NCBI GenBank assembly: GCA_965223265.1
Contig: OZ244999.1
Span: 3,232,001 to 3,296,000 of the forward strand
From: Planctomycetota bacterium
GTDB lineage: Bacteria; Planctomycetota; UBA8108; SXIK01
Direction of reading: 5' to 3'
Length of the DNA: 64,000 nt
Shown here: in pieces, positions 2 through 53,740 of the stretch
Layout: each line of letters starts with the position of its first letter
Position numbering within the stretch: the stretch's first letter is position 1
Position numbers and translations under genes: made by a program
Notes under the pieces: generated by a model
Databases searched by the model: none
Told to the model about the DNA's origin: nothing
Seen by the model: only the letters and a program-made list of their open reading frames with translations

Positions 2-583
2 GACGCGGGTGTGCCGGCTGCGATTGAGAAAGCTGTCTCATTCACGATCGCCCTTTGGATCAATCGTCGCCGGAGCGACGGCGAGGCTTGCCTCATGGCA
101 TGGCGCGGAACCGACGCTCGCATGGAGCTTCGAGTGTCGGAGCGCGGTGCGCTCGTCCTGGGGTTCGATGCTGGCGACGAGACCAAAGTCGCGTCGAGCC
201 AGGAGAACCTGGTGTCGGTCGATGCCCGGGCCAGGCAGGAGAATTGGGTGTTCGTGGCCGTGACTTTTGATGCCACGAAGAAGCAGCAGCAGTTGAGCTT
301 TTATCGAGGCGACCGCGGCAGAGACGCGGCCTTGGCGGGCACCGCGGACCTACGCTTCGATCAGAACGTGCCGCGCACTTACGACCAGTTGAGCGTCGGT
401 GGGCCGGCGCCGAACGATGATCCGCTGCGGCGCGAGCGCCAGGCTTTTCTCGGTCTCGTTGACGAGGTCCAGGTCTTCTCTGATCCGTCAGGCGCCGGCG
501 CAGCCTTGGGCGTCGAGGCGCTTCGACAGCTGCAGGCACGGGACAGCGTCGAGACTCGCACGAAACCTGGGACTACCCGGTGA
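2..583 (+). CDS. C-terminal part of a LamG/concanavalin A-like beta-sandwich protein (5' end outside the window)
   Basis: Frame is open to the window start; LamG-like motifs SFTIALWI, WVFVAVTFD and FLGLVDEVQVF. Confidence 0.7.
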   Translation, partial: DAGVPAAIEKAVSFTIALWINRRRSDGEACLMAWRGTDARMELRVSERGALVLGFDAGDETKVASSQENLVSVDARARQENWVFVAVTFDATKKQQQLSFYRGDRGRDAALAGTADLRFDQNVPRTYDQLSVGGPAPNDDPLRRERQAFLGLVDEVQVFSDPSGAGAALGVEALRQLQARDSVETRTKPGTTR

Positions 584-34464: not shown

Positions 34465-36132
34465 ATGTTCGGTTTGCAATCTGCCGTTGGACTCAGCCTG
34501 GGTAACGAGAAGATCGACGCACTGGAACTTGTGCGTCAAGGACGCTCGGCGGTTGTTCGTCGCCTGTTGTCTATAGACTCGGATGAGTTGCGCGATGCAC
34601 ACGTGCCTCGCGACGACCTCTCTGAGGTTGTGCCGTATGTTAAACGTCGGATGCAGGCAGCTGGAATTCCGACTCGAAGGATCGTTCTTGGAATCGATCA
34701 GAACGTTTGCATGCTGCGGTACGCTCAGGTCGCTCCAGCGCCCACATGGCGCCTAGAGCTGATCATGAAGTTCGAGACAGACGAAATCATGGAGCGTATG
34801 GGTGAGCCGGTCGTCAGTAGTTACCGGTTGCTTTCGGTGCGAAGAAACGTGGACGATGACCAGGTTGTCTTGCTTTCGGTCGCGAAAGAGAATGAGCTTG
34901 CGAACCGCCTGAAGATCCTCGAGGCGAATGGCATGATGGTGAAGAACGTCGTGCCTCACGCACTCGCCCTCTTTCATGCCGCTGAGGTGTTTGGCGAAGC
35001 TGCAGATGAGGAGGCGGAGGACGACGATGTACGCCTCTACCTCGACATCGGCAAAGAGAGCATCGATACGGTTCTAACCGTCAACGAGCGCCTCGCGTTT
35101 GCGCGCAGTATGAGCTTCGGCGGCGCCGCTTTTACCAGGATCTTGGCGGACTCTCTGGAAATCGATGAGAGTCGCGCAGAACGTCTCAAGTGTGAGCGCG
35201 GAGGACTTGACACCAAGCATCCAAACGTACTGGAAGATACCGTTTCGCCGTTGCGAAACGCTGCGGGGCAGCTTTTGAATCTGATTCAGTCGACGATGAA
35301 AATGGCCGCTACACAGCACGGCCGGTCCTTGCAGCCTTTGAGTCATATCTTCCTGTCTGGCGGCGGTGCGCAGCTTCGCGGACTTGATGCGTTTTTGTCG
35401 CAGAGCATGAAAGTTTCGGTGAAGAGGTTCGCTCCGTTCGGCCACTCCGCCGGTGCTGCGGCACGCTCGGGACGGAATGCGGCAGTCGGCGCTGACTTCG
35501 ACGCCGCGGTGGCACTTGGACTTGCAGTCACAGGTCTTGATCACTCCGGAGAGGGGAGTTTCGTGCTCCTACCCCACGAGTACCGAAGGCGCCGTCTCTT
35601 CCGGGAACGGACGTTGTTTCTGTACTTGGCTGCAGCGTTTCTCGTTCTTCTTGTCGGGGCGCGATTTCTCCACGGTTTTTTGAGAGGCCGAGAGGCCAAC
35701 CATGTCTTGGCGGAAAACACCCGAGTTCACACAGAGTTGGTCGGCAAGAAACGAAGTCACGATGAAAATCTCCGGAAAGAATCGGCTGCTCGAGCTCGTC
35801 TCAACCGCATCCTCATCGAGAGTGAAGTCTCGGCGTTTCAGGGATTCGTGCTCGACTATCTTGGCCGTGAGTTGCCAGCTGAGGTTCAGGTAGAGTCGCT
35901 TGCGCTCGAAGAGCACGGCGTGCAGGTGAGCGAACGCGAGTACGTCCTGCGAGTCGCTGGACGGGTGAACAACGAACGACGACAGGCACTGAAAGTTCTG
36001 CGTCGGTTTCAGCAAGATTTGTTGGCATCCGAAAGGATCGGTGCGGTGGATATCACATCATCGACGCCGCTGCCGGGGGGTGCATGGTATGGATTCGAAG
36101 TCGAAATACGCCCGAACTATGTCCGCTACTGA
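34465..36132 (+). CDS. PilM-like actin-fold assembly protein fused to a PilN-like TM and periplasmic domain
   Basis: VGLSLG, LDIGKE, FARSMSFGG, AERLK, LSGGGAQLRGL, ALGLA; then LLPHEY, a TM helix, a coiled coil and LPAEVQVESL. Confidence 0.85.
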   Translation: MFGLQSAVGLSLGNEKIDALELVRQGRSAVVRRLLSIDSDELRDAHVPRDDLSEVVPYVKRRMQAAGIPTRRIVLGIDQNVCMLRYAQVAPAPTWRLELIMKFETDEIMERMGEPVVSSYRLLSVRRNVDDDQVVLLSVAKENELANRLKILEANGMMVKNVVPHALALFHAAEVFGEAADEEAEDDDVRLYLDIGKESIDTVLTVNERLAFARSMSFGGAAFTRILADSLEIDESRAERLKCERGGLDTKHPNVLEDTVSPLRNAAGQLLNLIQSTMKMAATQHGRSLQPLSHIFLSGGGAQLRGLDAFLSQSMKVSVKRFAPFGHSAGAAARSGRNAAVGADFDAAVALGLAVTGLDHSGEGSFVLLPHEYRRRRLFRERTLFLYLAAAFLVLLVGARFLHGFLRGREANHVLAENTRVHTELVGKKRSHDENLRKESAARARLNRILIESEVSAFQGFVLDYLGRELPAEVQVESLALEEHGVQVSEREYVLRVAGRVNNERRQALKVLRRFQQDLLASERIGAVDITSSTPLPGGAWYGFEVEIRPNYVRY

Positions 36133-36168: not shown

Positions 36169-36972
36169 ATGTTCCGCGCGATGAAGCTGCAGTTTGCTCA
36201 GATTTGGCACGAACACCGTCGTTTCTTGGTGGCCGTCGGTTGTGGAATGACCGTTTTTCTGGCGCTCAACTCGGGCGCTTCTCGTTATATCCGCAGTGCG
36301 GATCAGACGTTCCGCGAGGCGAGTCAGAAGGGCAAACAGAGTCGGATGTTGAAGAACGAACTGAAGCCTTACGCTGAGGTGGCAGCGAGACTGCAGTTGT
36401 ATGAAGATTTCGAATCTCGTCTGCGCAAAGAGATCGAACTGGCGCAAGATCTGCGACGGTTGGACCGCAAGGCGCTTTTGGTGCAGTTGACTGAAAAAAC
36501 GGAAGAGGTGTGGGCCGAAGCGCGTACGATCGCAAATCAACGTGGTGTCGCACTTCCCGAGCCGCTGAGTGAGCAAGACTATGGGTATGAGACAACGGAT
36601 GGGCACCAGGAGTTCATTCGTTACCATAGTTACCTCGGCGTCACGCGGCGGGCTCTTTTGGCGCTGCTCAACGGCGGGATGCGTTCGGTCGGTCCGCTCG
36701 AACTCGTATTTGAGGAGCTTGAACCGATTCATGGTGACCCTTCCGCCGCGCTACTCACTCAAACTGTCCATGTAGAAGTCTCCGGGAACTATCAAGCGTT
36801 CGTGTCGGTTCTCGAGTCGGTGCAGGAACCAGGCGGAGTCCTTCGGGCAAAGCTGCTGAATGTCGAGCGACCTGAAGACTCGGACGTCCTTTTGAACGGC
36901 GAGATCGAATTCTCCAATCTGCGATTGATCGAACTTGCGGGCGACACTCCTCGGGTTCGATTTGAAAAGTAG
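36169..36972 (+). CDS. PilO/GspM-like protein
   Basis: N-terminal TM helix, coiled coil, VEVSGNYQAFVSVLESV ferredoxin-like motif; position after pilMN. Confidence 0.65.
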   Translation: MFRAMKLQFAQIWHEHRRFLVAVGCGMTVFLALNSGASRYIRSADQTFREASQKGKQSRMLKNELKPYAEVAARLQLYEDFESRLRKEIELAQDLRRLDRKALLVQLTEKTEEVWAEARTIANQRGVALPEPLSEQDYGYETTDGHQEFIRYHSYLGVTRRALLALLNGGMRSVGPLELVFEELEPIHGDPSAALLTQTVHVEVSGNYQAFVSVLESVQEPGGVLRAKLLNVERPEDSDVLLNGEIEFSNLRLIELAGDTPRVRFEK

Positions 36973-37018: not shown

Positions 37019-37387
37019 ATGATTAGATTGAACGCCGAAAAAACGGTTTGTTTGTTGGCATTCGCCGCACTAGTGGTAGGCGGGCAAGAGCTACTCGTCG
37101 GAGTGTGGGACGCGACTGAGAACGTTCCTGTCGTCAGCTCGGAGGTCGCCGCCGGACGTGCGAACGTCGTTTGGCGTGGATACCGGCGCTTTGAGAACGA
37201 TCGGCCGATCGCGCGTAGTCCGTTCACGTACGCCGAAGGATGGGATCTGCCGGAGGCTGTACCGATCGATCCACCGCTGCTACCGCCACTGAAACCTCGG
37301 TTGCCACCACTGTCGATGCAGCGAGGTGGTGGACGTTTCAATGCGAGTCACGAGGATGGATCGGAAGAAGCGGAGGCCGAGAAATGA
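37019..37387 (+). CDS. Small membrane-anchored Pro-rich protein (PilP/GspC-like by position)
   Basis: N-terminal hydrophobic segment, RSPF motif, Pro-rich tract; its stop overlaps the next ATG (ATGA). Confidence 0.55.
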   Translation: MIRLNAEKTVCLLAFAALVVGGQELLVGVWDATENVPVVSSEVAAGRANVVWRGYRRFENDRPIARSPFTYAEGWDLPEAVPIDPPLLPPLKPRLPPLSMQRGGGRFNASHEDGSEEAEAEK

Positions 37388-39867
37388 GACGTCTCACTTC
37401 GCTTGCACTAATCGCGTTTGGGACGTTATGGCTACTGGCTCCTTCAACTCCGTTCTGCGTCGCTCAGGAGCGGTCCACCGAGTTGAGCTCTACGGGTGAT
37501 CCTGACGAAGTCAGGCCGTACGACCTAGTACGCATTAAGACAGGTGCAGTGATCGAAGGATTTATTCTCACTCCAGGCGATCTCCGTAGCGTTGAGAAAT
37601 TCCGCATGCGGCGTCGAAGCGGTAGTACGCTGAGCTTGAACGTTGACGACGTCGAGAACATCGTTCGTCGGCAACCTCCGGAGATGGTCTACGAGCACAA
37701 AGTGAGAGGGCTGCGTAGGATTTCGGGAGAACGAGAGTTCCTTGACGCACTGATCGATCTCGCCCGTTGGTGTCACGCTCCCTTGGTGGTCCTTGAGGGG
37801 GATCCTCCCCTTCCAGAGAGAGCGGTCGAACACTATCTACGCGCACTCGAGCTAGACCCGAGCCAGCACGAAGTCTATCCTCATGTGCTTTCTCTTCTGG
37901 CTTCCGAAAGCTCTGTTGACGAAATCTTGGTTCAGTCACTCTCAGACGAACCAAGGTCCCTGTCTGCGGCCGCCGCTTCGCGCCTGGAACACGAGGCCCG
38001 CGTCATCGAGCTTGCGGCGCAGGGGGGCTACGAGAGCCCAGAGCTTGACTACCGCGCCGGCTTGATCGCTGCACTGTGGTTGGAATCCGCCAGCGGTGCG
38101 ATCGGGCATCTCACGCGTTTCCTCGACAAAGACTCGACAAACCTGGGGCAGCGACGACGGGCGCGTGCGCTACTGAGCCGGCTTCGGCGCGAGGCGGGAG
38201 ACGTTGCTGGAGCACAAAAGGTGTACGAGGATCTTCTCAAGACCGAGCGAGGGAGAGATTCGTTTGAAGCACACTTCGAGCTCGGCATGCTGGCGTTCGA
38301 AAGTGAGGCGGCTGACGCTCTGCAGCAGAGTCGAACACATTTTCAAGCCGCCCTGGAGGCCCAGCCGAGGTACTCGCCTCTCCTGCTTTACCTGGCGGCG
38401 GTAGAATACGAGGCCGGCGATTTAACGGCTGCTCAGCGTTGGCTTAGGCGGTTTCGCGCGCAGGCGCCGGATGACATCGACGGCGCCTGTGATCTCGCGA
38501 TCGTACTCGAGGGGTCTGGGAAGTCGGCGGCCGCACGAAAGCTTCTCAGCGAACTGCCGTCATCGACCGGTGGCCGACTCGAACTCACCCGCGCGGCTCT
38601 TCTCGACGCGGCCGGGGATCAGGAGAGCGCCCTGGTGCACTACCGAAACGCTGCTGCTGGCGCTGAGTCCGCCGCCGCGAGGTTGGCGCTGGCTAACGTT
38701 TTGGCGCGACTCGGACAAGTGGGCGAGGCTAAAAGCTTGGCAGCCGCGGAGCTGAAGCGTGGCGAGTCATCGACATTCTTCGCCGTCGCCTCACACATCC
38801 TCGCGTCGTGCGCTCTCTCCGGTCGTGATGAGGAAACGGCACGCGGCCATCTCGAACGCGCCGTACGGCTTCAACCAAACGGTGACTGGCTCGAGCAACT
38901 TGGAGTCGTTTGTCTGCAGCAGGGAGATCTCGCTGCAGGGCGGGCGCATCTCGGGCGACTCAGCGACGTCAAAGAGCGCCCCCACGCTCTCGCAGCTCTC
39001 GGGTACTATCACTACTCGCTCGGTGAGTTCGATCAAGCAGACCAGCTTTTCGAGCAGGTCGTACGGTTGATTACGCCGAAGAAACCTGGCGGCAAGAATC
39101 TGTCGAAGTCTCGGCGCGCGGTACTCGACTATGCCATCAGTGGTCGGCAAGCGATCGCCGATCTCCATTCACTTGAAGTGTGGCGCGCCAAGCTCCACAG
39201 TGACCCTTCAGATCACGTCGATGGTTGGCAGGAATCCGAGCGCTTCGGCGTCGCCATTGGATCACACCCCGCCGGCATGAGATTTCACGGAGTGCAGCGC
39301 GGCGAGCCCGACGGTGTGACTTCGGCGTTTTCAGATCGTTCTTTCTCGGTGGATCGATTTGAACGTGTCGTGACTCGACTGCGCATCGTTCGAGGGAAAG
39401 TGCGGATCGGCCTACGGCTCGAGGAAATCGCAGCGAGGCGACGAGGGGGAGGTTTTCTCGTATCTCGAGACTACGATGGGCGGGTGCGCCTCCTGCAAAA
39501 GGCCCGGAACACTTGGCAGGAAATGGAGCCGAGCGAGCCCGCGGACAAAAGGGATTCGGATGCATTGTTTGAATATCGCGGCGACTTCATTTGGCCGGAA
39601 GGAGCCAATACCCACACACTTGAGATTCGCGTCGCGCGAGAACGTCAGGTCGACCGGCGAGGCGCCCGCACAGGAGTCCGGCGGGCTCATGTCTTTCTGG
39701 ACGGACGTGCCGTCGCAAAGTACGTCGACATCGACGAGATCGAGGGCGACATGCGCATCGGTGTCTCTGCGCAGGCTGACGCAATCGGCGCTTCCTATGA
39801 CGTGATCGTCGAGTCGTTCGACGTCTATCGACGTCGCCCAGTTGAGGTTCGAAATGAAAGGTATTGA
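37384..39867 (+). CDS. Exported TPR-repeat protein with a C-terminal beta-rich domain
   Basis: Signal peptide MRRLTSLALIAFG..., DLVRIKTGAVIEG, many TPR-like helices (YLRALELDP, AHFELGML, ALAALGYYHY). Confidence 0.8.
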   Translation: MRRLTSLALIAFGTLWLLAPSTPFCVAQERSTELSSTGDPDEVRPYDLVRIKTGAVIEGFILTPGDLRSVEKFRMRRRSGSTLSLNVDDVENIVRRQPPEMVYEHKVRGLRRISGEREFLDALIDLARWCHAPLVVLEGDPPLPERAVEHYLRALELDPSQHEVYPHVLSLLASESSVDEILVQSLSDEPRSLSAAAASRLEHEARVIELAAQGGYESPELDYRAGLIAALWLESASGAIGHLTRFLDKDSTNLGQRRRARALLSRLRREAGDVAGAQKVYEDLLKTERGRDSFEAHFELGMLAFESEAADALQQSRTHFQAALEAQPRYSPLLLYLAAVEYEAGDLTAAQRWLRRFRAQAPDDIDGACDLAIVLEGSGKSAAARKLLSELPSSTGGRLELTRAALLDAAGDQESALVHYRNAAAGAESAAARLALANVLARLGQVGEAKSLAAAELKRGESSTFFAVASHILASCALSGRDEETARGHLERAVRLQPNGDWLEQLGVVCLQQGDLAAGRAHLGRLSDVKERPHALAALGYYHYSLGEFDQADQLFEQVVRLITPKKPGGKNLSKSRRAVLDYAISGRQAIADLHSLEVWRAKLHSDPSDHVDGWQESERFGVAIGSHPAGMRFHGVQRGEPDGVTSAFSDRSFSVDRFERVVTRLRIVRGKVRIGLRLEEIAARRRGGGFLVSRDYDGRVRLLQKARNTWQEMEPSEPADKRDSDALFEYRGDFIWPEGANTHTLEIRVARERQVDRRGARTGVRRAHVFLDGRAVAKYVDIDEIEGDMRIGVSAQADAIGASYDVIVESFDVYRRRPVEVRNERY

Positions 39868-40591
39868 ACGTGGACGGTTCGATACGGCGCGACGTCGTCG
39901 GCGCGGAGGTCTCGGACGGCGTCAGACGGACCGAAGCGACGGAGGACTGCGGTGGCGTGGCTCCTACGGATTTACCCTCATCGAGATCCTCGTCGTCATC
40001 ACCATCATTTCGATCTTGATGGGACTTGCATTGGTAGGAATCAACGCTGCCCGTGGTCGCGGCGACGTCGCTGCGGTGCGCGCCGAGTTGCAGAGCTTTC
40101 GTGCTGCTGCGCAGCAATTTCGACAGGAGATGGGAGATTTTCCGCCGTCACAACTGCACGACGTCGGAAGCGAGTTGATCGGCAATGGTCTCAACGATGG
40201 AAACGAAAGCCTTTTTCTCTTTCTCATGAGTCGTCGACTCGGCGAGCCGCTCTTCGAGCCGCGCGAAGACCGCTGGGTGAACACCGACAGCGACACTTTC
40301 ACCGGCACCCAGCTGCCGAAGGTGCAGAAGGAAGTCCAACCCGTGCACTCGACCGAGAAGCGGCTCGAATATTCCGATCTGTGGGGCAATCCGTTCGTTT
40401 ACATTCACAATCGCGACTATGGCTCTTCATTCGACTACATGACGTCGGAGGGTGAAGTCTTCACGGTGCAGGCGCAGAAGAACCCACAGACGGGGACCTT
40501 TTACGCGCCGACCAGTTTTCAGCTCTGGTCCCTGGGCGGCGACGGCATCAACCAGAACGGTGGAGGAGACGACATCGTCAGTTGGGAATGA
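39854..40591 (+). CDS. Major pseudopilin, GspG-like
   Basis: G|FTLIEILVVITII class III signal, GDFP, DLWGNPFVY, FQLWSLGGDG....DDI C-terminus. Confidence 0.9.
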   Translation: MKGIERGRFDTARRRRRGGLGRRQTDRSDGGLRWRGSYGFTLIEILVVITIISILMGLALVGINAARGRGDVAAVRAELQSFRAAAQQFRQEMGDFPPSQLHDVGSELIGNGLNDGNESLFLFLMSRRLGEPLFEPREDRWVNTDSDTFTGTQLPKVQKEVQPVHSTEKRLEYSDLWGNPFVYIHNRDYGSSFDYMTSEGEVFTVQAQKNPQTGTFYAPTSFQLWSLGGDGINQNGGGDDIVSWE

Positions 40592-42090
40592 GACTGTGCA
40601 GCAGCAAACGTTTGAGTCAGAAGTCAACCTTGCTTTCAAGTGGCGGCCGTGATCTGCATCGCTCGGTGGATTGCACCTCCGCGATCGCAGCTCCACATGG
40701 GCATTCGGCCGTGCGCAGACGCACCACGAGTGCCGACGACAGGTACTTGTCTCACGAGCTCGTGGCGCGGCGTTCGCTGGCAGGTTGTTTCTGGGCATCG
40801 TGGCTGCTTCGAAGTGGCGGGGGCGAGAGCGGCGCCCGAGCCCAGCATCCGCATCGGTGCTCCGGCTTCACGCTTGCTGAGTTGCTGGTTGTTGTCGCCA
40901 TCATTGGCGTGATCGGCGGTCTGGGAGCTGGAGCTTTCTTCACCGCTCGAAGGCAGTATGCGATCCATGGGAGCGTGGGTGAGATTCAGGCGATATTGCG
41001 AGCAGCTCGCAACTCTGCGGTTGCGACCGGCAACCCTACGGTTGTGGAGGTGGAGCCAACGTCTCGAAAAGTCTCCACGAGACTCTTCAATCCAGTTGGA
41101 GAATGGAGCTTTGAGACCGGCGGTGAACGGACGAGACGGGGCAACCTCGTCGTCCGACGCGAGACGAGCGTGAACGTTGAAGTCGCAGCGGGGCCAGTCG
41201 GGGACGCGATCAAGATCGGTAGCCAAGGGGGACACGTTGATTGTGGCAGTGAGGCGCGGTTTGACTTGCGGACAAGCCTGGCTATCGAAGCTTGGGTACG
41301 ACACGATCTCTCGCCGTCCCCCAAGTTCTTCACCAAAGCAGAATCCAAGCGTTCCCGTCGTCGCCTTGGCGCGCGTACGCGCCGGGAAACGCAAGGAGGA
41401 AAAGCCCGCCACGGTCGAGTGATCGTGCAGAAAAAGGGTGCTTATGGTCTTTCGATGCGGGACGACGGCACACTTGTTGGCATGCTTGGAGACGTCCGAG
41501 TCGTGACCACGGCGCCGGTCGTGCCTCCTGGACGTTGGGTGCATGTGGCGCTGGTGTTCGATGGAGGGAAGGTAACGATCCTTGGCGACCGCGTGCCACG
41601 TGGCTGGCGTGTTGAAGCTCCAAGAAAAGACTCAGAGCCGCCAGCGCTTCTACCCGTGGTCGCGGAACCGTTGACGATTTCAGCGCGTGAGGCACCGTTT
41701 CCAGGGGTGATCGACGAGGTGCGTCTTTCTGGGAGCGTTGAACCGCTTGTTTTTGTTTGTCCCGAGACGCAGCAGCTAGTCGGTTGGAGAAAGTCGATTC
41801 ATTTCGACGCGCGTGGACATCTCGATGCCCAGTTTCACGAAGACCCGATACGGTTGACGCTCGTTGAGTTACCGCAAGGGTGGACCTCCGAGACATCCAC
41901 GGAGGCGACTGGTACGGCCGTCGCCATGGATTTTACCGTCTCGTTTGAAGTGTGGCGAGCTCGCTGGGACGATCCTCCCGACGATCTGAGCGAGTTGGGA
42001 GAAGAGGCGAAAATCCTTGCAGGATTTGGCGCGGCGACTCAGCGCACGGTGACGATCGGCAGGCTCGGGTACGTCGAGCCGGAGGCGTGA
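40588..42090 (+). CDS. Minor pilin (GspH/FimT-like) with a LamG domain
   Basis: G|FTLAELLVVVAIIG, LRAARNSAV, LamG motifs IEAWVR, WVHVALVFDG, FPGVIDEVRL; start uncertain. Confidence 0.85.
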   Translation: MRLCSSKRLSQKSTLLSSGGRDLHRSVDCTSAIAAPHGHSAVRRRTTSADDRYLSHELVARRSLAGCFWASWLLRSGGGESGARAQHPHRCSGFTLAELLVVVAIIGVIGGLGAGAFFTARRQYAIHGSVGEIQAILRAARNSAVATGNPTVVEVEPTSRKVSTRLFNPVGEWSFETGGERTRRGNLVVRRETSVNVEVAAGPVGDAIKIGSQGGHVDCGSEARFDLRTSLAIEAWVRHDLSPSPKFFTKAESKRSRRRLGARTRRETQGGKARHGRVIVQKKGAYGLSMRDDGTLVGMLGDVRVVTTAPVVPPGRWVHVALVFDGGKVTILGDRVPRGWRVEAPRKDSEPPALLPVVAEPLTISAREAPFPGVIDEVRLSGSVEPLVFVCPETQQLVGWRKSIHFDARGHLDAQFHEDPIRLTLVELPQGWTSETSTEATGTAVAMDFTVSFEVWRARWDDPPDDLSELGEEAKILAGFGAATQRTVTIGRLGYVEPEA

Positions 42091-42092
42091 AG

Positions 42093-45000
42093 ATGGACGC
42101 GCGGCGCGATCACATCGATCACATCGAAAACATCGATCACAAGCTCCGCAGTGACCTTTCTGGTCGACGCAACGGGAAACGTCGCGGCGCGGCTCTGATT
42201 ATGGTACTCGTCGTGCTGACGATCCTTCTGCTCGTCGGCGCACCGTTCGTTTCGACGATGATCGTGCAGGACCGAGAGTCGCATCATTTTTCTGCGGCGG
42301 TGAAAGCACGACTAGCGGCTGAGGGCGCACGCAACCACGCCATCGCGCGACTACACGAGACAGTCTATGCGGTGGAGTGGGAAGAGGAAATCGCCAACAC
42401 CGAGGCGGTCGACACAACGGGAAGACGCAGGCGACTCGCCGCGCGCAGCAGTTCCCCTCGGCGTGAAGAGGTGCGTGGCAATCGCGAAGGGACGCGCCGC
42501 GACCGTCGTGAGAACTCGACGCGTCGACAGCGATCTCGGCGCAACAGGAAGGCGCCAACCTCGAACGTGCCCGCGCTCCCGGAGTACTTTCGTCGTTCCA
42601 CCGCTGGACCGTCGGCGCGCGAGTTCGACGATGGCGATGAGCTTGTAACGGCTCTCCCGGCTGAGGGGGCTGCCGAACGATCGTCGCAGAATGCGCCAGG
42701 TGTTTCCGAGACCGACTCTCCGACCGGTGAGTATCGGACCGCGACGGCGAACTCCCATGCGGGCTCGGCTTCTCACCTGCCGCTGTTCGGCGATGGCGTT
42801 ACGGCAACCGTTTCCGTCAGCGATGAGCAGGCGAAGTTGAACGTCAATACAGCACCTCCGCGAGCGATCGCGTCGCTTCTCGCAGTGGGCGAACTCGCCG
42901 AGCCGCTCGAACCCGCGGACACCGAGATTGTTCTTGTTGACGGCCGCCGCTTTCGCAGCGAACCCGTACGGCGGGGAGCACCGATCCGCGACGAAAAGGT
43001 CACAGGGGAACGGCAGAAAACTTCCGCGCGGCGCGCTCGACGGCTTCGGAGTGGCCTGGCTCGCATTGCCGGTGCCGTGATTCTCGTGGACCCGGAAGTC
43101 GGGCTGGAAGCCGTCACCTACCAGCGAAGAAAGGGCGACGTGCTGGCGGACTGCTTCCGCCACGCTTTTTTTACCCGCGCGACAGTAACGAAGAAGACGT
43201 TTCCGGCTGGCACTCTGGTCTATGACGTGCGCGGTTGGAAGCTCGGCTACCATCGCTTGTGGAATGAGCCGCTTGGCGGATTTCAACCCGCTCGCCTGAC
43301 GGTTTTTCGTTCCGTCGAAGCGCTGCGCGAGATCTCTAACTGGCAGCTGGCCTCGCTGTTTCTTGGACGCTTTCTCGATCAAGGCCTGAGCGTCGAGTTC
43401 TTGCGGAAGCACGGTGTTAGCTCTGCACAGCTCGCCGCAACCGGCCTCGAACCGTTCCTTTACTCCTCTGACCCGCCGCAGCCGAGTCGAGAGGACCGAG
43501 CCCGACTGCGGATCGCTGAGAGATCTTTGAGGCGCGTTCGATTCAGCTCCGATCTCGTCTCGAAGTTGCGACAGCAGCGCGGCGTCGCGGCTGTGGTCGA
43601 ACTTGCCTCCCGCCTTGAGGGCGCCACCAGAACAGACGTGCGCCGCGAGGAGTCGGAAGTGAAGCGGAGTCTCGGTAAGACTCGGCGGGTTGTTCAGTTT
43701 GACGGGCGATACGTGAGCGACGTCATCGACAATCTTGCGGAGGTCTACGCGAGCCCGGGTGTCGAGACTCTCTTGGCGGAGGACGTTGAGCGCATCCGCC
43801 CGCATGTGACCGTCTCATCCACGCTTCCTGCCCGTTGGTCGGAACCGCAAACTGTGCAAAACTCGGGCAAAAAGGGGGCAGGAAGGCGGAACGTCCGTCT
43901 GCCGTGGGGAGGCGAGTTCAACGGCGCCACCATCGTGCGGATCAGCAGTCGGAAGGACCCTGACCGTTTCTTTTTCAACGAGGTGAGTCGCGGCGGTGTC
44001 GGCGGCATCCGACTCGCGATGCCGCTGCGCACCCGCATCGAGGAGTTCGATACGACGGTCGCGGCGTTGCAGCGCCATCCCGTCAACGTCAATGCCGCAG
44101 CACCGGCGGTTCTGCGTGCGGTTTTCACCGGAGTGAGGGGCGCTGGCGAAGACCAGGTGGTGACCCCCTACGAGGCAGATCAATTGGTGCGGCGTGTCGT
44201 CGAGTCGCGGCCACTGACGGGGCACGCGGATTTCCTGGAACTGCTCGAAGAGGCAGCAGCAGACGAGATCGTGAGCAGTGACGACGTCGCAACTCTGTTC
44301 GCAAACGCCGTGCAGCCAACTCATCACATTCTTCGAGCATCAACTGTCGGTCTGTGCTATTCCACCGGTGATGTCTACACCATCGAGTCTCGCGCCGTCG
44401 TGCGCGCAGCGATGGGTGGGCGCGTAGGAGCGGCACAATTTCGCGAGATCGTCGAACCATCACCACCTCGACGCCTGAGCGTCGGTCTTGATACACAGAG
44501 AGATTTCGCTGACGGCATCTTTCTATACGATCAAGCAGTAGGTGTACGTATTGGAGAGAACCATCGTACGCACCTGATCGGTTTTCCTGGTGTGCGATCG
44601 CATCTCGTGCAGACGAGGCCTTTGCTTCTCCATCGCGCGCCGCGCTCTATTCCGGGAGGTGATCGGAGCGGACTTCGGTTGTTCCCGGCTTCAGCTTCCT
44701 TACCGCGGGGTGAAGTTGTCGGTGACGTTCTCCGTTTCGACGATACCCACGAAGGAATCGAGCTCGCACATGGCGAATCGTACCTCCTTGACTTTAGCCT
44801 TGGCGGAGGTGATGACGGTGAATTGATCGACCTCACAACGATTCCGGCGGCTGTGGAGTTTTGGTTTCGACTGCGAACGTTCCCCACGGCGCGTAGTCCC
44901 GACGGGCTTCTTGTTCTACTGCAAGGTGGCGCCGTGGGTGATGAGGGGCGCAATCGCATGCGTCTACTGTTCGATCCGTCCCGCTCCCTGGTGCTTCTAC

Positions 45001-48000
45001 GCCTTTGGGATGCGACTCTATTCGACCCGTCCATTCCCAACGACGACGTTTTAGGGCAGTATTTGGAGATCCGGGCACCGCGATCGATTGACCTCGCGAC
45101 GTGGTACCACGTTCGCGCCGTGTGGGATTCTGTCGCGCCTGGCGGCGCCCAGCTTTTTATCGATGGGGTCAGTTCCGGGACGACGAATCTCACCACCCGG
45201 CTGGCGCGTGCGCTGGCCCTGGATGGAGGCGGGGGTGGAGGGGCGTTCACCGTTGAAGATGGTGAGCGATTGCCGCGTGAGGGCGTGGTGCGAATTGGAT
45301 CGGAGCTTGTGGAGTATCGGCGCAGTGGGAATCAATTCGCCGTGCGCGTGCAGCCGGCGTCCTCGTGGCGACCGCCCGCACGGAAGCTTCGCGAGTTCCG
45401 TGAAGCTGGCGAAGTGCCCACTGACGACAGAGACGAGGACGCCGTCGGCGCAGCCAAGACTCGTGATGCACTGCCCGGCGTCGCTGCGTTGGGGGTCGCA
45501 GCGGCAGCGGCTGTGACGTCTCCGACCCAACCGATGCTCATGAGAGGTTCAGCGAATGGGCGCGGCACCATCGGCAGCGAACATCCGATCGGCAGCCAGG
45601 TGGCGCTGCATGGCTATTCGCTTCCGCTGGCGCCGTTGGCTTCTTTGCCGTCGACGCAGGGAGTCGTGCCACGTCTCAGCGCCAACTCCATCGCGGTTGG
45701 CCGCGGTGGACGCCGAACAGCAGACATTCTGCCCGCTTACGTGATTCCACAAGGCGACTACGATCTCTCCAATCTTCACATCTCCCGGGCGGACATCCCC
45801 GGAGAATTTTACATCGTGCCGCTTTTTTGGCGCGACACTGTTGAAGTGAGAGCGGGCGTTTCGAGCGTCGCGTTTCCAGCGCTCAAGGCGGCGGATTTTT
45901 TTCAGTCAAGTGGCATCTGCGCCTACGGCGGTTTCGAGTTCTTCTACGTCAAGGCAGCCGTGCCGCCCACTTACATCCGCGAATTGCGCAATCATCCTCT
46001 CGCGATCGACGTCGACAGCGGCGCGATTGACGGCTTGAAGGTTGTCGGTGTCTATACCCGTGATAGTGCTTCGGCCACTTCTGTCGACGAAGCGCGTGAG
46101 CTTTTGGACGAAGTGCAAGGCGTTGGTTTCCGTCTGCTGTATCCACTCACCCAGCTCTCTCTCGCCGTCGATGGCCCGATCGCCGAGCTCTACCCGCAGT
46201 CAGGCGTGCTCCAGGTTCGAGGCCGACCGGCTGAGTGGGATATCAGCGGCGGCGCGGGACCGCGTCCGAGTCTTCTCGGGCAGTCGATCTTCGACCATCA
46301 TCCAGACGATGTGGTCGAGTGGATCCGCTACACCCATGTCGTCGACGCGAGTGTCGGCGGGCAGCCGTTTCATCTCTTCGTGGCGCCGCCGACTTCGACC
46401 TCCCGTGAGGGCGGCAGAGATTTGCCGTTTCGCGGTTTCGAATCCGACCCGCTGCAGAGACGGACGTTGACCCTACCGATCGGTGAGGCTGTGACACAAG
46501 TCCTGGCGCTGGATGGGGCCGGTGCCGGCTACGGAGACTACGTCACACTCGTCGGCAACGATCCCACCAAGGTAGAGCCGCAAACGCTACGGATTCATAC
46601 GGTCCGGGAGCATCGCTCCGGGCTCTTTTTTGCGTCACTGGTCGCCGTCGACGGCAGCGGACGTGAGGTCTCAGGATCACGCGCGTCGCTCCGACACACC
46701 TACAGGATCGAAGACGAGGTGCGGATTGAAAAGTTCCCCAGCGGGCGCCTACCGGAACACGGGGTTGGCAAAGCTGTCTTTTTCGGCGGACTCGACGTCG
46801 CCGCCAGCCGCACATCTGTTACGCAAGACGGCGCACCGGCGCAGCAGAGCGAGTACCGTGACGAAACTCGTGGAACGGTGCTCGACGAGATCATTCGACT
46901 ACGTAATAGCGATGCTTTTACGACGCTCTCCGGGCAGCGTATGTCGACATCTGGCTTCGCCCTCGTACCACTGCGAGACGGTAACATCATCTTGCGGCAA
47001 AGCGGGGATCGGCATCACATCGCCGGGACGATCTCTGCCGACGAGGAGATCTCGGTGTCCAATCCGCTCGAAGTCATGTTGGTGGGGACGGAGAGCATTC
47101 TCTTTCCGTTCGCGCGCGGACGCCAAGAAGGTGTTTTGCGCGTCGGAGACGAGCTTTTCTACTTCGAAGCGGATGAGGCTGCTGAGTTGGCCTCGGCGAC
47201 GACCAACAACCCAAAACCTCGCAGCGCGAGCCGCGGTGAATGGCGTCAGCCGCTTCTTCGGCAGTCAGGCAATGAGCGCATTCAGGCCACCGTTCAGCGC
47301 GGCTTCCCGCGACGAGGCTTCGCGTCTCTCAGTGACGGATTGGGGCGCAGCGAAGTGTTCTACTACGGTGGACGATCGAGCAGTGGGTTTCGTCGCGTAC
47401 TCCGTGGACAGTTAGGTACCTCAGTTTTGGGTCGGTACGGCTCTCTGCGGCAGCAACACCCCATCCGCGGTGCCTCGCGACAAGTTCGACTGATCGGTCG
47501 TGGGCTTCTCGGCACGACGAGAGAAACCCATAGCGTCGGAGACCCCGTATACTCGGTGCCTTACTTGACGGGATCGCCGTTGGCCGGCCCGTTGACGGAA
47601 ACGGGAATCCCGGTCACAAACAGTGCCGTGTTTCGCTCGCCGGGGTACATTCTCGTCGATTCCGGACGGCCGTCGACGCCGTGGGAGATTATCGCCCACC
47701 TGGGTCCCTTCGGTGAGGGGATGTTACGCAGGCCACGTAGCGACGACGGACGCGGAATCCTTCGCGCGGCGTTCGGAACGCAGCCGCAGCCTGTCGGTCG
47801 TGGAACCTTCGCGTGGACACTTCCCTATCGCCATCCGGATCGATATCAGCCCGAGACCGCGAGCGAATCTCTGGCCTACTTTCAGAAGACTTTTCGAGTT
47901 TCTGGTGCGCGCTGGCGGGCTCTCGAGTGGACGCTGCGGCCGTGGTTCGGCGGTCGGGATCGCCGCGTCGATGTCGTCGCGCTTGTCCGGTTCGACGACG

Positions 48001-48281
48001 AGTCCAGTTGGGACGCAAAACCAACCAACAAGCCGGGTGGACTTTACTTCTTCGAAGTGGCCGATCGCAGACGAGGTGCGGACAAACCGGCACGGTTCGA
48101 ACTCGACCGCGAAGCCGACGAAGTCCACGTGCGTTTCTACTTTCGTTATCTCTCTGGTGCGTTCTCGCGAACCGGAGAAACCATCACAGATGACTGGAAA
48201 GAGACGCCAGTAATCGAGCGCGTGAACCTGGAGTACGAAAAAGGTGATGTGATCGTGCGTCACGAGGAGTTGCCGTTTTGA
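42093..48281 (+). CDS. Giant (about 2060 aa) GspK/PilX-like minor pseudopilin with LamG and repeated beta modules
   Basis: RRG|AALIMVLVVL (no Glu5, as in GspK/PilX), ARLAAEGA, DEQAKLNVNTA, second PVNVNAA, YTIESRA, LamG (VEFWFR, WYHVRAVWD, LFIDG). Confidence 0.85.
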   Translation: MDARRDHIDHIENIDHKLRSDLSGRRNGKRRGAALIMVLVVLTILLLVGAPFVSTMIVQDRESHHFSAAVKARLAAEGARNHAIARLHETVYAVEWEEEIANTEAVDTTGRRRRLAARSSSPRREEVRGNREGTRRDRRENSTRRQRSRRNRKAPTSNVPALPEYFRRSTAGPSAREFDDGDELVTALPAEGAAERSSQNAPGVSETDSPTGEYRTATANSHAGSASHLPLFGDGVTATVSVSDEQAKLNVNTAPPRAIASLLAVGELAEPLEPADTEIVLVDGRRFRSEPVRRGAPIRDEKVTGERQKTSARRARRLRSGLARIAGAVILVDPEVGLEAVTYQRRKGDVLADCFRHAFFTRATVTKKTFPAGTLVYDVRGWKLGYHRLWNEPLGGFQPARLTVFRSVEALREISNWQLASLFLGRFLDQGLSVEFLRKHGVSSAQLAATGLEPFLYSSDPPQPSREDRARLRIAERSLRRVRFSSDLVSKLRQQRGVAAVVELASRLEGATRTDVRREESEVKRSLGKTRRVVQFDGRYVSDVIDNLAEVYASPGVETLLAEDVERIRPHVTVSSTLPARWSEPQTVQNSGKKGAGRRNVRLPWGGEFNGATIVRISSRKDPDRFFFNEVSRGGVGGIRLAMPLRTRIEEFDTTVAALQRHPVNVNAAAPAVLRAVFTGVRGAGEDQVVTPYEADQLVRRVVESRPLTGHADFLELLEEAAADEIVSSDDVATLFANAVQPTHHILRASTVGLCYSTGDVYTIESRAVVRAAMGGRVGAAQFREIVEPSPPRRLSVGLDTQRDFADGIFLYDQAVGVRIGENHRTHLIGFPGVRSHLVQTRPLLLHRAPRSIPGGDRSGLRLFPASASLPRGEVVGDVLRFDDTHEGIELAHGESYLLDFSLGGGDDGELIDLTTIPAAVEFWFRLRTFPTARSPDGLLVLLQGGAVGDEGRNRMRLLFDPSRSLVLLRLWDATLFDPSIPNDDVLGQYLEIRAPRSIDLATWYHVRAVWDSVAPGGAQLFIDGVSSGTTNLTTRLARALALDGGGGGGAFTVEDGERLPREGVVRIGSELVEYRRSGNQFAVRVQPASSWRPPARKLREFREAGEVPTDDRDEDAVGAAKTRDALPGVAALGVAAAAAVTSPTQPMLMRGSANGRGTIGSEHPIGSQVALHGYSLPLAPLASLPSTQGVVPRLSANSIAVGRGGRRTADILPAYVIPQGDYDLSNLHISRADIPGEFYIVPLFWRDTVEVRAGVSSVAFPALKAADFFQSSGICAYGGFEFFYVKAAVPPTYIRELRNHPLAIDVDSGAIDGLKVVGVYTRDSASATSVDEARELLDEVQGVGFRLLYPLTQLSLAVDGPIAELYPQSGVLQVRGRPAEWDISGGAGPRPSLLGQSIFDHHPDDVVEWIRYTHVVDASVGGQPFHLFVAPPTSTSREGGRDLPFRGFESDPLQRRTLTLPIGEAVTQVLALDGAGAGYGDYVTLVGNDPTKVEPQTLRIHTVREHRSGLFFASLVAVDGSGREVSGSRASLRHTYRIEDEVRIEKFPSGRLPEHGVGKAVFFGGLDVAASRTSVTQDGAPAQQSEYRDETRGTVLDEIIRLRNSDAFTTLSGQRMSTSGFALVPLRDGNIILRQSGDRHHIAGTISADEEISVSNPLEVMLVGTESILFPFARGRQEGVLRVGDELFYFEADEAAELASATTNNPKPRSASRGEWRQPLLRQSGNERIQATVQRGFPRRGFASLSDGLGRSEVFYYGGRSSSGFRRVLRGQLGTSVLGRYGSLRQQHPIRGASRQVRLIGRGLLGTTRETHSVGDPVYSVPYLTGSPLAGPLTETGIPVTNSAVFRSPGYILVDSGRPSTPWEIIAHLGPFGEGMLRRPRSDDGRGILRAAFGTQPQPVGRGTFAWTLPYRHPDRYQPETASESLAYFQKTFRVSGARWRALEWTLRPWFGGRDRRVDVVALVRFDDESSWDAKPTNKPGGLYFFEVADRRRGADKPARFELDREADEVHVRFYFRYLSGAFSRTGETITDDWKETPVIERVNLEYEKGDVIVRHEELPF

Positions 48282-49594
48282 GCCTGCAAGTACACCGAGC
48301 CCGGTTACTTCGCACCGCAGAAGGCCGCCGCGGCTATACATTGATCGAGATGATGGTCGCGATCGGGTTGTTGGCGTTTTTCGGTAGCGGCCTGGTTGTT
48401 CTGCTGCGCCAATCGACTTCGCTGTGGCGATCCGCGGAGACCCGAGGACAAGCCTACGAGCAAGCGAGATCGCTGCTTGATCTCATTGCTTCGGATCTCC
48501 GCTCGGCCGTTGTGCGGGGGGGCGATGCGTATGACGACTCCTGGGTGCGGTTTGTCCTCGACAATGGAGTGAACGGGCAGACCCGACTGCGCTTCGTGCG
48601 CGCCATCGATGCAGAATTGAGTCAGCCGGGATTGCGTTACGCTGGGGAAATGGTCTCGACACGAGCTGCGGAGACGTTTCGTGGATACGTCAGAAAACTT
48701 CCGAAGGAACATGAAAAAGCGTCACGCTTGCGGTCTCCTTCCGGACTCATGGAGGTGTGTTATCTCACAGATCCGCGCTCCGATGTGCACGCGCTTTGGC
48801 GCGGCGTGAGAGCACCTATCGGCGGGCGCGACTCATTCTTCTTCGACGCCAACATTGAGAGTCCATCAACGAACAGGTCGGAACTGCGACGTCGCGGAAC
48901 GTCGCGGGACGTCACATCAGACACGTCGTCAGGGGCGCCAGAGAGTTCTGCTGTGAACAGAACTGCGTCACCGAGCGGAGCGCAAGACGAAAGCGTCGAT
49001 CCGGACCTTAGCAGTTTCGCTGCAGCGATTGCGGAGCACGTTTTGTACCTGGGCTTTCGCTGCGGCAACAGCACCACCACGGGGTGGCACGATGCACCAA
49101 CGAATTCACCGCCGACCGCACCTTCGGCCGTCTGGAACGCACATGCGAAGACCCGCGCGCGAACGCGTGGTGCTACAGATCGCAGAAGTGAAAGCGAAGA
49201 GAGTGCACCCCAGCATCGATTCCCGCAAGTTGTGGAAGTCACCGTCGTGATTGGCGAGCCCGAACAAACGCTTGGTCCTCGGCTCGCCAAGGCCCTCAGC
49301 ACGACCGATGTGGAGATTGAGCTCACGCGTCCTCTGCAACGATCCGACGACCGCGGTGATCCTTTCGTTCGTATCGGCAGTGAGTGGATTGCAGTCGAAG
49401 AGTTTCGTGGCAGCCGCCTGTTGATCGCAAGCGGCGGCCGCGGTGCACGGAAAACGGACGCCACCGATCACCCGCGCGGCGCGAGCGTGCATGCCGGGCG
49501 TCGCTTCAGGCGGTTCGTGTCGATCCCCGCAGCAAAGGGTCGATCCGTCGCAGAAGGCGAGGCGACACGACCAACCAGCGGGAGAAACAGATGA
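48278..49594 (+). CDS. Minor pilin (GspJ/PilW-like)
   Basis: G|YTLIEMMVAI, LDLIASDLRSA, EVCY, FPQVVEVTV; TTG start overlaps the previous stop. Confidence 0.85.
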   Translation: MSLQVHRARLLRTAEGRRGYTLIEMMVAIGLLAFFGSGLVVLLRQSTSLWRSAETRGQAYEQARSLLDLIASDLRSAVVRGGDAYDDSWVRFVLDNGVNGQTRLRFVRAIDAELSQPGLRYAGEMVSTRAAETFRGYVRKLPKEHEKASRLRSPSGLMEVCYLTDPRSDVHALWRGVRAPIGGRDSFFFDANIESPSTNRSELRRRGTSRDVTSDTSSGAPESSAVNRTASPSGAQDESVDPDLSSFAAAIAEHVLYLGFRCGNSTTTGWHDAPTNSPPTAPSAVWNAHAKTRARTRGATDRRSESEESAPQHRFPQVVEVTVVIGEPEQTLGPRLAKALSTTDVEIELTRPLQRSDDRGDPFVRIGSEWIAVEEFRGSRLLIASGGRGARKTDATDHPRGASVHAGRRFRRFVSIPAAKGRSVAEGEATRPTSGRNR

Positions 49595-50094
49595 GGCTCC
49601 CGGAGCTCTGGCGCGCGGCGGCGAGTCCTCTGACGTCCACGACGGACGCGGAGTGGATTCACTCTAGCCCTTACGCCATGAAGGTCCCATGCCGTCGTCG
49701 CGACGCGAATGCCGGTTTCTCGCTGACCGAAATCCTCATCGCGCTGTTGATTTTGGCGCTAGGCGCGGGCGGAGTGATCTCACTCTTCGTCAGCGCCTCG
49801 TCACTACACAGACGAGCTGTCGATCGTACTCATGCTGCACTGGTCGCCGAGGAAGTGGCTGAGACCGCACGTCTTGCCTTCACTCCGGAGACGAAACCGA
49901 ATGAGCTGATCGAGCGCGTGCGTGCGCGTTTGCCGCAGGTCATCGACACCTACACGTACGAGATCGAGGCGACGCCACTCGTTGGCGATGGCTGGGGAGA
50001 GGGGGAGGTCAGACTGCGCGTCGTCGTGCGCCGCGAAGGCAGTAGCGACGCGCGAGCCGAAACTTTCTCGACGATCCTGCTGCCGCGGTGGTAG
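49591..50094 (+). CDS. Minor pilin (GspI/PilV-like)
   Basis: G|FSLTEILIALLILALG; ATGA overlap with the previous gene (alternative start 49678). Confidence 0.85.
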   Translation: MRLPELWRAAASPLTSTTDAEWIHSSPYAMKVPCRRRDANAGFSLTEILIALLILALGAGGVISLFVSASSLHRRAVDRTHAALVAEEVAETARLAFTPETKPNELIERVRARLPQVIDTYTYEIEATPLVGDGWGEGEVRLRVVVRREGSSDARAETFSTILLPRW

Positions 50095-51558: not shown

Positions 51559-52668
51559 TCACCGTCCGCGCCGTGAAACTTCCCTCTTTGGCTGGGCTAC
51601 GCGACCGTAGCGAGAAACGAAGAGCTCGAGGAGGTCGCGCGGATCGGCGCCTCGCTTCATGGCGCGATCGAGTTCATAGAGCGCTCGAAACAGCGTCGAG
51701 AGTCGCGACGGCGACACGGTTTGCAGCTGGCGTTCGAATCGTGGTAGGAACGGGCGCTGGACGAGGCCAGCCTTGATCCAATCGTCCGAGCCGGCTCCTC
51801 CGTGACGCATGGCGTGCGCGCGGCGAAGCGATCGTAGACGAGGGATGAGAGAGCCGACGAAGATCAAAAGAATGCCCGCCGCATCCGTCGTCCTTGTGGC
51901 ACGCTGTTGTGACGCGAAGCCTTTACGAAAGAGATCTCTCGCTTCCGTGAGGGCGCCGTGGCATTCGCCCTCGAGAAAGAGGTCGACCAGACGAAAGACG
52001 CTGTTGTCGCGCGAGTCTGTGACGAGATTCTTGATGGCTTCGAAGGTGATTTCGCTCGTTTGTCTGCCAGCGGCCCACGTCGCCAGTTTTTCGAGCTCCT
52101 CGTCGAGGATGGCAAGGTCGCAGCCGACGCTTTCGTGCAGGGCGAATGCAGTTTCGAGGTCGAGACGTAGTTTCTTGCTCTTGGCCTGGCGCACGACCCA
52201 GTGAGAGAGCTCGCTGTCCCAAGTGGGTGTGCGCGTGTCCCAGGGAGGGGGGCGATCATAGGGCTGGCGACACTCGATCACCCAACCCTTTGTGGCGAGA
52301 GTTTTCGAGAACTTCAGTCTGCCGTCGAGTTTGCCATCGACGATGGCAACGAAGTGTCCACCGGAAAAGCCGCTATCGAGATACGGCGTGAGGATCTGGC
52401 CATGGGCGCGCAGAAACCACTCCGCGGGATCGACGATGACGATACGGTAGGGTGAGAAAAAGCTCGGCGTGCGCAGCTCGTCGAGAACTCGCGAGACCGG
52501 GAGACTCTCGATCTGGGCTTCGCCTGTTGGGCCGTCGAAGCGGGTGACGACTGGTTCGTCGCCGCCAAAGCGTTCTTGAACAAAGCGCTTGAGGAAGAGG
52601 TCCTTGAGAAATCTGGCGTCGCCTGTCAGCGCGACAACGCCGGGTAGCGTGTCCCACTTCTTCCCCAT
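51559..52668 (-). CDS. holA: DNA polymerase III delta subunit
   Basis: LTGDARFL, LRTPSFFSPYRIVIV, GCDLAILDEELEKL, SVFRLVD, DRAMKRG. Confidence 0.8.
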   Translation of the reverse strand: MGKKWDTLPGVVALTGDARFLKDLFLKRFVQERFGGDEPVVTRFDGPTGEAQIESLPVSRVLDELRTPSFFSPYRIVIVDPAEWFLRAHGQILTPYLDSGFSGGHFVAIVDGKLDGRLKFSKTLATKGWVIECRQPYDRPPPWDTRTPTWDSELSHWVVRQAKSKKLRLDLETAFALHESVGCDLAILDEELEKLATWAAGRQTSEITFEAIKNLVTDSRDNSVFRLVDLFLEGECHGALTEARDLFRKGFASQQRATRTTDAAGILLIFVGSLIPRLRSLRRAHAMRHGGAGSDDWIKAGLVQRPFLPRFERQLQTVSPSRLSTLFRALYELDRAMKRGADPRDLLELFVSRYGRVAQPKREVSRRGR

Positions 52669-52798
52669 GATCGAGTCGAAGCTCTTCGGCCCATTCGCGG
52701 CGCTGCGACCGGCACGAATCATGATGGCCGGCGTAGGTGCAAGGTGTCGAGGGTGACTGGAAACGCGTCGTCCTGATGTGAGTTCGGCTGGAGGTGCA

Positions 52799-53632: not shown

Positions 53633-53740
53633 ACGCAGCTTCCGCCGAATCCTAAAGTTAGGATACCGTCCCCGCCCCAAGAGGGCGGGGAGGCGCGGCT
53701 CTAAACCGTATACAAACGTATACCGACGGAGGAGTCGCCC

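Follow-up and report, generated by a model that had tools for sequence, protein, structure and literature searches.

Why would a pilin carry, several times over, a small barrel known from phage tails, and what would such a protein do? The question is raised by a 64,000-nucleotide stretch of a Planctomycetota bacterium (contig OZ244999.1, positions 3,232,001 to 3,296,000; hereafter the window), which holds an operon for prepilin-type proteins. Two of these concern us most: the giant GspK/PilX-like pilin K (42093..48281; 2062 amino acids [aa]; P0001; 17 homologs) and the GspJ/PilW-like minor pilin J (48278..49594; N_methyl match; 6 homologs), both on the plus strand, as are all features below unless stated. 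A sequence-only reading had noticed a repeated module in both proteins, likened it to phage tail and baseplate modules, and proposed a virion-like repeat reused at a pilus tip. The repeat holds, its segments aligning significantly in profile tests with shuffle controls, and so does the likeness. We consider it slightly better than an even bet, at a probability of about 0.55, that K is a modular tip pilin of the GspK/PilX kind that closes on itself and makes up a large head for adhesion.

The fold is clearest in J. Between two conserved strands near its C terminus, which we take to be the last GspJ hairpin, lies a copy (49277..49498) that AlphaFold2 modeled as a 74-residue all-beta barrel with a predicted local distance difference test score (pLDDT) of 92.8. 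In a structure search of 48,161 chains with this barrel, the first 13 rows were phage virion proteins, tail-tip, capsid, and tail proteins among the top matches; the ten best had Z scores of 9.0 to 5.4, and the first cellular chain scored 4.7. The Chi tail tip (Z 9.0, root mean square deviation [rmsd] 1.8, 69 residues aligned), VP1 capsid protein (8.8), JBD30 hub (8.7, rmsd 2.3, 70 aligned), and GP4 (8.6) were followed by lambda gpJ 493-562 (7.5), R4C (6.4), and, farther down, T5 pb9 (4.2), with identities of 17 to 21% to the top three; a further comparison gave JBD30 distal tail 262-324 at Z 5.0. A Z score under 8 can mean only a common arrangement; four rows exceed 8 (9.0 to 8.6). With regard to a canonical five-stranded OB topology, the cellular matches were barrels of elongation factors, of pyruvate kinase, and of the F1/V1 ATPase N terminus, presumably of the RIFT type. 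A structure search of BFVD gave five matches at E<=0.001, with template modeling scores of 0.74 to 0.77.

Profiles led to the same proteins. The two best PDB matches of the module profile were the JBD30 hub (E 0.05) and the Chi tail tip (E 0.25), and the sole match of the whole J-family profile was JBD30 hub 495-563 (E 0.17). That stretch would correspond to hub gp53 domain VI, which according to its description is a little barrel of six strands off domain V that touches domain VII and stabilizes the baseplate (PMC11445458). Similarly, the lambda gpJ match is likely the "OB" domain reported on a loop of HDIV in lambda and F-pyocin hubs (PMC11101478, PMC13455828). The barrels of the phage tail tips (JBD30 gp53 domain VI, Chi, the lambda gpJ "OB" domain, the JBD30 and T5 distal tail "OB" domains, and the R4C megatron) are the same small barrel as ours, at Z 9.0 to 6.4 for the hub type; those of JBD30 and Chi have the Glu...Arg-Gly...Thr...His pattern in common with it, and phage decorating barrels likewise sit in loops of host domains. 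Unlike them, the barrels here occur in several copies, one nested, inside pilins whose neighborhood has no virion genes. Among PHROGs, phrog_1101 was matched by 10 of 24 module copies at E<=0.1, and four of four K homologs matched baseplate-wedge and virion-structural families (E 1e-10 to 5e-23); single segments of the window matched only phrog_22794 (E 0.006 to 0.008) and phrog_7578 (E 0.35). Both PDB and PHROGs over-represent virions.

Family databases see little of the module. Scans of single segments gave 0 of 7 matches in Pfam at E<=1 and none in NCBIfam, and phmmer with the J barrel found no PDB sequence at E<=10. No Pfam family covers the module above its cut-off; the nearest is PF23666 (Rcc01698_C, the gene transfer agent [GTA] megatron's C-terminal domain), which one K homolog matched at E 1e-4 over profile positions 37-97 and which a single copy out of the 24 module copies matched at E 0.02. 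The best homolog, however, reached only 22.9 bits against a gathering threshold of 27, and no window segment matched.

How many copies are there? The seven segments first noted all lie in frame within K and J, within 1 to 2 bases of the positions given, and we count up to eight barrels, up to seven of them in K and one in J. Copy 1 (42885..43226) lies inside the GspK alpha-domain region and has a basic loop insertion of about 35 aa; copy 2 (45192..45611) has a low-complexity insertion of about 65 aa in the loop before RG. Copy 4 is in two parts (47022-47171 and 47475-47567) around copy 5 (47190..47477), and copy 6 follows (47568..47822). Of the roughly six K copies originally proposed, 1, 2, 4, 5, and 6 are supported; the segment at 46175-46493 belongs to a degenerate copy 3 (46146..46508) that is not significant alone, and a faint copy 2b, recognizable only in its N-terminal half, had been missed at about 45855-46127 (45855..46127).

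The support for these copies comes from several comparisons. With a hidden Markov model (HMM) built on five J homologs only, no part of the window's K exceeded 3 bits. When 11 distant K homologs were combined with 5 of J, the profile gave 27.9 bits for copy 2 and 6.0 to 7.9 for copies 1, 4, and 6, the best of 500 shuffles reaching 6.4. An HMM built from 43 non-K proteins gave 20.4 bits for J, where the earlier reading had seen one clear copy, 11.8 for copy 2, 10.8 for the C-terminal half of copy 4, 7.3 for copy 6, and 6.1 for the nested copy 5, against 3.4 for the best of 500 K shuffles; copies 1 (-0.7) and 3 were undetected. These 43 proteins had been selected with a profile holding window copies, and so the test is independent in training, not in selection, and not fully blind. 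When profiles of 23 near relatives were compared with the independent module, copy 2 matched at 97%, outer copy 4 at 95%, copy 6 at 93%, and the nested copy at 75%. Copy 1 reached 17%, with a score of 18.6 against 12.2 for the best of 30 column shuffles; copy 3 (3.5%, 15.2 against 14.8) and copy 2b were not significant. The repeat is real, and copies 1, 2, 4, 5, and 6 of K and the J copy are well supported.

Compact K homologs (28 proteins aligned) help with the remainder. They have six clean copies at 97 to 99% each, and the window copies match their positional counterparts best: 98% for copy 1, 100% for 2, 14 to 35% for 2b, 98% for 4, and 99% for 6. Copy 3 matched compact copy 3 at 35% in one comparison and at 76% (E 2e-5 over 80 columns) in another, and is therefore a decayed positional orthologue. 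A search for DNA repeats showed only short matches, of 24 nucleotides at most; since there are no long DNA repeats, the duplications are old. Across the module Glu is conserved at 99%, Arg at 98%, His at 84%, and Thr at 74%, and the main aromatic columns at 71% and 49%. Two barrel-like segments of K without the RG motif (43815-44078 and 46524-46733, K residues ~575-662 and ~1478-1547) are conserved in homologs. Tried as further copies, they matched the module at 2 to 3% and each other at 14% and are not counted; possibly they are a variant of the barrel fold.

K also has, in a model, a barrel within a barrel. The sequence-only reading had placed a nested copy at 47298-47423; the nesting stands, and the copy is longer, at about 47190-47477. 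Among 115 K proteins, 13 have 117 to 168 residues between the conserved Glu and Arg of copy 4, a loop that contains a second motif set; two more have unrelated inserts of 91 to 95 residues there, and in the other 100 the loop spans 12 to 67 residues. A model of 46998-47570 (pLDDT 79.6, predicted template modeling score 0.76, residues 64-80 under 50) was matched as two barrels. JBD30 (8rk3_o) aligned 74 residues of the outer one over model positions 9..190 (Z 7.0, rmsd 2.9), and VP1 aligned 71 residues to position 191; the inner one (65..160) was aligned by GP4, R4C, and Mystique (8jov_1 Z 5.6, 8gtc_M 5.2, 9n71_B 4.6). One row, Chi at 34-161, mixes the two. Together with the J copy, both members of the pair model as the same small barrel, as a shared fold would have it. 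In the model, then, copy 5 sits in a loop of copy 4, and the insertion is clade-specific. Tandem half-copies had been a candidate, given that a compact copy aligns to both N-terminal halves; this is ruled out by the model, which has two complete barrels with nested ranges. The inner copy scored 61.7 against compact copy 2b and at most 36.3 against other compact copies, and is therefore probably a relocated duplicate of 2b; this suggests that 2b was duplicated into copy 4 and that the original then decayed. The nested copy would be a clean, clade-dated case of domain insertion into a domain's own paralogue.

A second domain of K is probably interrupted as well. The N-terminal part of a LamG domain (44715..45188) matches Laminin_G_3 up to profile position 111 of 151, just before copy 2, and the match ends at 105-113 in the 5 of 12 K homologs that have one. 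Putative C-terminal LamG strands lie beyond the barrels at 46734..46910, on the basis of compact homologs and comparison with the LamG of the minor pilin H. In the compact homologs, adding the columns after copies 2 and 3 lifted the match to the H LamG from 7% to 89% (43.6 against <=31.2 in 30 controls); direct comparison of the unedited region does not reveal the split. The insertions into the GspK alpha domain and LamG are read from alignments.

Despite these insertions, the C terminus of K appears to return to its own pilin domain. K residues 45-870 folded together with residues 1905-2062 gave a score of 0.62, the best of three controls scoring 0.00. Solved complexes attain the mark used here in 116 of 157 cases, mismatched pairs in 2 of 215. 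The runs on K shared at least 55% of contacts, with a partner pLDDT of at least 69; in this case the pair is two parts of one chain. The strands concerned are residues 780-800 (44430..44492), which pair in the model with the C-terminal 20 residues, and the terminal strands themselves (48219..48278), whose end position is conserved across K homologs; modeled contacts join 783-790 with 2052-2059 and 794-797 with 2046-2049. With its last strand back in its own pilin sheet, K would therefore hold about 1,240 residues as one closed insert and need no PilY1. K homologs without PilY1 have been reported to supply their own terminal strand, at times past a large insertion (PMC13533445). K could serve as a natural extreme test of a recent model in which the C-terminal strand licenses filament assembly, here across about 1,240 residues. 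Just before these strands, a conserved K domain of about 135 aa (47820-48227) has no family match; the model pairs a portion of this domain with residues 794-797.

What kind of pilin is K? Glu at +5 is missing only in K and present in G, H, I, and J, and tip K/X pilins typically lack it (PMC13533445); together with the identity of J, this points to a place for K at the filament tip. NF037980 covers only its N-terminal residues 31-90 (E 2e-7, 30.9 bits against a cut-off of 130 over a 307-position model). PF03934 was found in 4 of 12 K homologs (E 1e-4 to 0.04, all under gathering), and 5vtm_X at E 0.18, weak signs of alpha-domain motifs. Like GspK/PilX tip pseudopilins (NF037980, PF03934, PF14341), K has a prepilin N terminus without Glu5, candidate alpha-domain motifs, its own C-terminal strand in the modeled sheet, and G, H, I, and J as neighbors. 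Unlike them, it has 2062 aa against the 307 positions of the model, up to seven barrels and LamG, a terminal strand past the ~1,240-residue insert, and a PilM protein in its operon. The type IVa tip of PilX and PilY1 differs in that no PilY1 gene follows the minor pilins here. The Verru_Chthon cassette (TIGR02596, TIGR02599, TIGR02600) is also a pilin cassette with a K-like protein A of about 1,300 aa, but its matches cover only the N-terminal helix, at 16 to 27 bits against cut-offs of 70 to 332. Modular pilins such as PilB and PilC of S. sanguinis, ComZ of Thermus, and CpaL of Caulobacter are also close: large modules, lectin modules among them, are grafted or inserted in a tip pilin with a late terminal strand (PMC8179133, PMC13533445). 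The parts of these two papers available to us name no phage-type barrels or multilevel nesting, give 860 aa as the largest named example, and call GspJ nonmodular, whereas J here has a barrel. K would work in the manner of a modular GspK/PilX tip pilin, yet it is not recovered as a GspK equivalog, as half of a PilX-PilY1 pair, or as Verru_Chthon.

The K family, with more than 100 distinct members among the search matches, has no Pfam, NCBIfam, or PDB entry above cut-off. In 121 K proteins, between 1 and 7 barrels were detected per protein. The family extends tip pilins to 1,300 to 2,200 residues, built through repeated loop insertion. Two homologs (P0059, P0104) have a rearranged architecture, with four or five barrels in the N-terminal half and LamG shifted downstream. 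Titles and abstract openings in the literature on pilins and planctomycetes held no account of the K family or of the barrel in pilins; Dataset S1 of PMC8179133 could include some such pilins.

We imagine that a type IV filament is the product of the operon and that the complex at its tip, made of K-I-J above H, would be a very large binding head. K would stand at the apex, as family knowledge of pilins without Glu5 predicts, cap the filament, lock its own sheet, and hold the ~1,240-residue head as a closed loop, as modeled. The ends of the ~70-residue barrel are adjacent, and barrels can therefore plug into loops of other domains, including another barrel. They may act as accessory units like the phage "OB" decorating domains, enlarging and bracing the head and adding surface for binding next to the lectin-type LamG domains that K and H have, so that the filament would grip polysaccharide, particles, or cells. 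Modular pilins are reported to bear lectin and adhesion modules at their tips (PMC8179133); for K, models and comparison predict an adhesive function.

Several observations weigh against this adhesive-head reading. Copies 2b and 3 appear decayed in this clade, and the aromatic columns of the module look more like core than like a sugar-stacking face. In the window's own clade, the alignment that rejoined LamG in compact homologs brought no score gain. The closure score may reflect likeness to solved GspK, and a self-built alignment was used. Foldseek on the PDB gave no match at E<=0.001, although VP1 and JBD30 ranked first, and neither a secretin nor an assembly ATPase gene was among the open reading frames (ORFs) scanned (20 + 22). 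As for binding, carbohydrate recognition by such a domain is a proposal in a T5 paper (10.1101/2022.09.20.507954), and a GTA paper calls the function of such domains so far unknown (10.64898/2026.07.19.739414), in the parts of both available to us.

It is rather unlikely that the operon instead encodes type II secretion machinery, in which the pseudopilus would be short and the barrels would give very large exoproteins a bigger platform to dock on in the periplasm, with no external adhesin. The best family match of G is indeed GspG, with T2SSG weak in two of two locus homologs; K has GspK-type alpha-domain motifs (PF03934 and 5vtm_X, both weak) and its own terminal strand, as GspK does; and phage barrels serve as protein docks in PyoF13 and TspA. 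However, a PilM-type protein is encoded in the operon, LamG on both H and K suggests outside ligands, and a tip of 2062 aa is adhesin-sized, far above the ~300-aa GspK model. The same scans of 20 + 22 ORFs found no GspC, D, E, F, L, or M; these may be elsewhere in the genome.

Alternatively, the barrels might be purely structural spacers or braces without a ligand, gained and decaying through easy insertion, with function residing in LamG and the C-terminal domain. The variation in barrel number and the degenerate state of 2b and 3 would fit, as would a pre-RG loop that accepts inserts of 12 to 168 residues and the description of JBD30 domain VI as baseplate stabilizing (PMC11445458). We find this unlikely, given that every one of the 15 loci extending as far as J keeps the J barrel (in one of them a contig end truncates it; the profile included J homologs) and that conservation of the nested copy within its clade is strong, beyond the needs of a spacer. 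One can also envision the tip complex as a baseplate-like docking platform, its barrels holding separately exported fibre-, tailspike-, or enzyme-like partners; this analogy we consider quite improbable. In PyoF13 a barrel attaches F-pyocin side fibres (PMC13455828), and the tailspike TspA docks on the GTA distal tail domain via such a barrel (10.64898/2026.07.19.739414). If true of K, a planctomycete filament would have exchangeable payloads, held via a part common to phage tails.

The barrel is not confined to phage. At E<=0.001 the module profile picked out 4,111 representatives from 1.84 billion, and among 152 matches examined (146 new and 6 earlier), 109 were K family and 43 were not. Ten of these 43 were giant proteins with an N-terminal motif that we take to be of the planctomycete type, and two had pilin-like N termini of another family. 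Pfam assigned a family to 10 of 27 non-K carriers, namely FG-GAP (2), S74 chaperone (2), RTX, SdrD, PPC, Kelch, NHL, and pectate lyase-like, and none to the other 17; some non-K carriers have more than 20 barrels. We infer that the barrel is a promiscuous extracellular domain common to virions, giant surface proteins, and these pilins, an unnamed domain of 70 residues that would tie phage baseplates, capsids, and fibres to giant surface proteins and pili; its pilin copies could serve as single, soluble units for probing barrel function. Of the earlier idea of a reused virion-like repeat, the virion-type fold remains, and "reused" is not to be read as taken from phage: the giant planctomycete-motif carriers, and FG-GAP or RTX in some carriers, stand against it, and since giant proteins of the cell-surface type have the barrel too, phage capture is not established. 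That the barrels were captured from phage tails and now serve as decoys for phage components, or as docks for them, is very improbable. In its favor, all top structure matches are virion proteins, 41 phage records match a J barrel at E<=1 (6e-4 for the best, with most of the matches listed lying under virion genes), and viral clusters head the Atlas results (0.95, 0.94, with recognition below the tool's mark). Against it, the operon has no virion genes, the carriers just named are cellular in type, and the databases searched favor virions.

Among the carriers, P0032-P0038 and P0053 are giants of 4,200 to 7,500 aa with 13 to 24 barrels; a Pfam scan of one of them gave no family, and tail-fibre PHROGs were matched by one. 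P0044 and P0079 belong to the second, unrelated pilin-like family and have 1,090 to 1,190 aa and four to six barrels, suggesting that the barrel may have entered pilins more than once.

The gene order around K is that of a pil/gsp-like operon: an FHA protein, a PilM-like protein, an ORF in the PilN/O position, a small ORF, a TPR protein, and then the prepilin-type G-H-K-J-I. The first encodes two FHA domains (31843..34455, Pfam FHA x2) and was found in 9 of 9 loci reaching 10 kb 5' of K. The PilM-like alignment protein (34465..36132) matches PF11104 at E 8e-19 and TIGR01175 at 91 bits (cut-off 133). The next ORF (36169..36972) has no family match and has homologs in 9 of 9 upstream-reaching loci; its position alone suggests PilN/O. 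A conserved protein with Pfam TPR models (37240..39867) precedes the GspG-like major pilin G (39842..40591; N_methyl, Glu at +5, best NCBIfam match GspG at 45 bits, cut-off 89) and the GspH/FimU-like minor pilin H (40582..42090), which has N_methyl, a weak GspH match, and an unsplit LamG (Laminin_G_3 E 4e-10, profile positions 32-141 of 151). The start ATG of K, at 42093, lies two bases past the H stop. The GspI/PilV-like minor pilin I (49384..50094) matches TIGR02523 at 35 bits (cut-off 52); its prepilin Gly is at 49714, with the real start downstream of the listed ORF start.

A genome scan gave 17 loci, 15 titled Planctomycetota and 2 uncultured bacterium; these represent the near clade of K only, since broader alignments held no conserved words for locus scans. 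The order FHA-PilM-ORF-TPR-G-H-K is kept in 9 of 9 loci reaching 10 kb upstream, and J then I lie downstream of K in 14. PilY1 was absent 3' of the minor pilins in the window and from 16 downstream ORFs scanned in related loci, and the operon and related loci showed only pilin operon context, with no virion genes. An FHA-GAF-sigma54 activator and the two-FHA protein precede pilM (29646-34455), hinting at a possible phospho-threonine control of the operon. Farther upstream on the same strand are mlaE-mlaF-mlaD-like genes and a DacB carboxypeptidase (23875-29351).

Gene I is followed by a family-less 437-aa ORF and then by holA on the opposite strand (51559-52722, minus strand), convergent with the operon end here and in five related loci where it was identified. 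Beyond it, 53556-64000 starts with tRNA-Arg(CCG), followed by an integrase-like ORF (53741-54547) and IS-like fragments, the GC content falling to 46 to 50% past 58 kb; this is probably an integrated element. At the other end of the window, 713-1441 (minus strand) encodes an exported protein with repeated Cys-rich motifs, presumably akin to YHS/TRASH metal-binding repeats.

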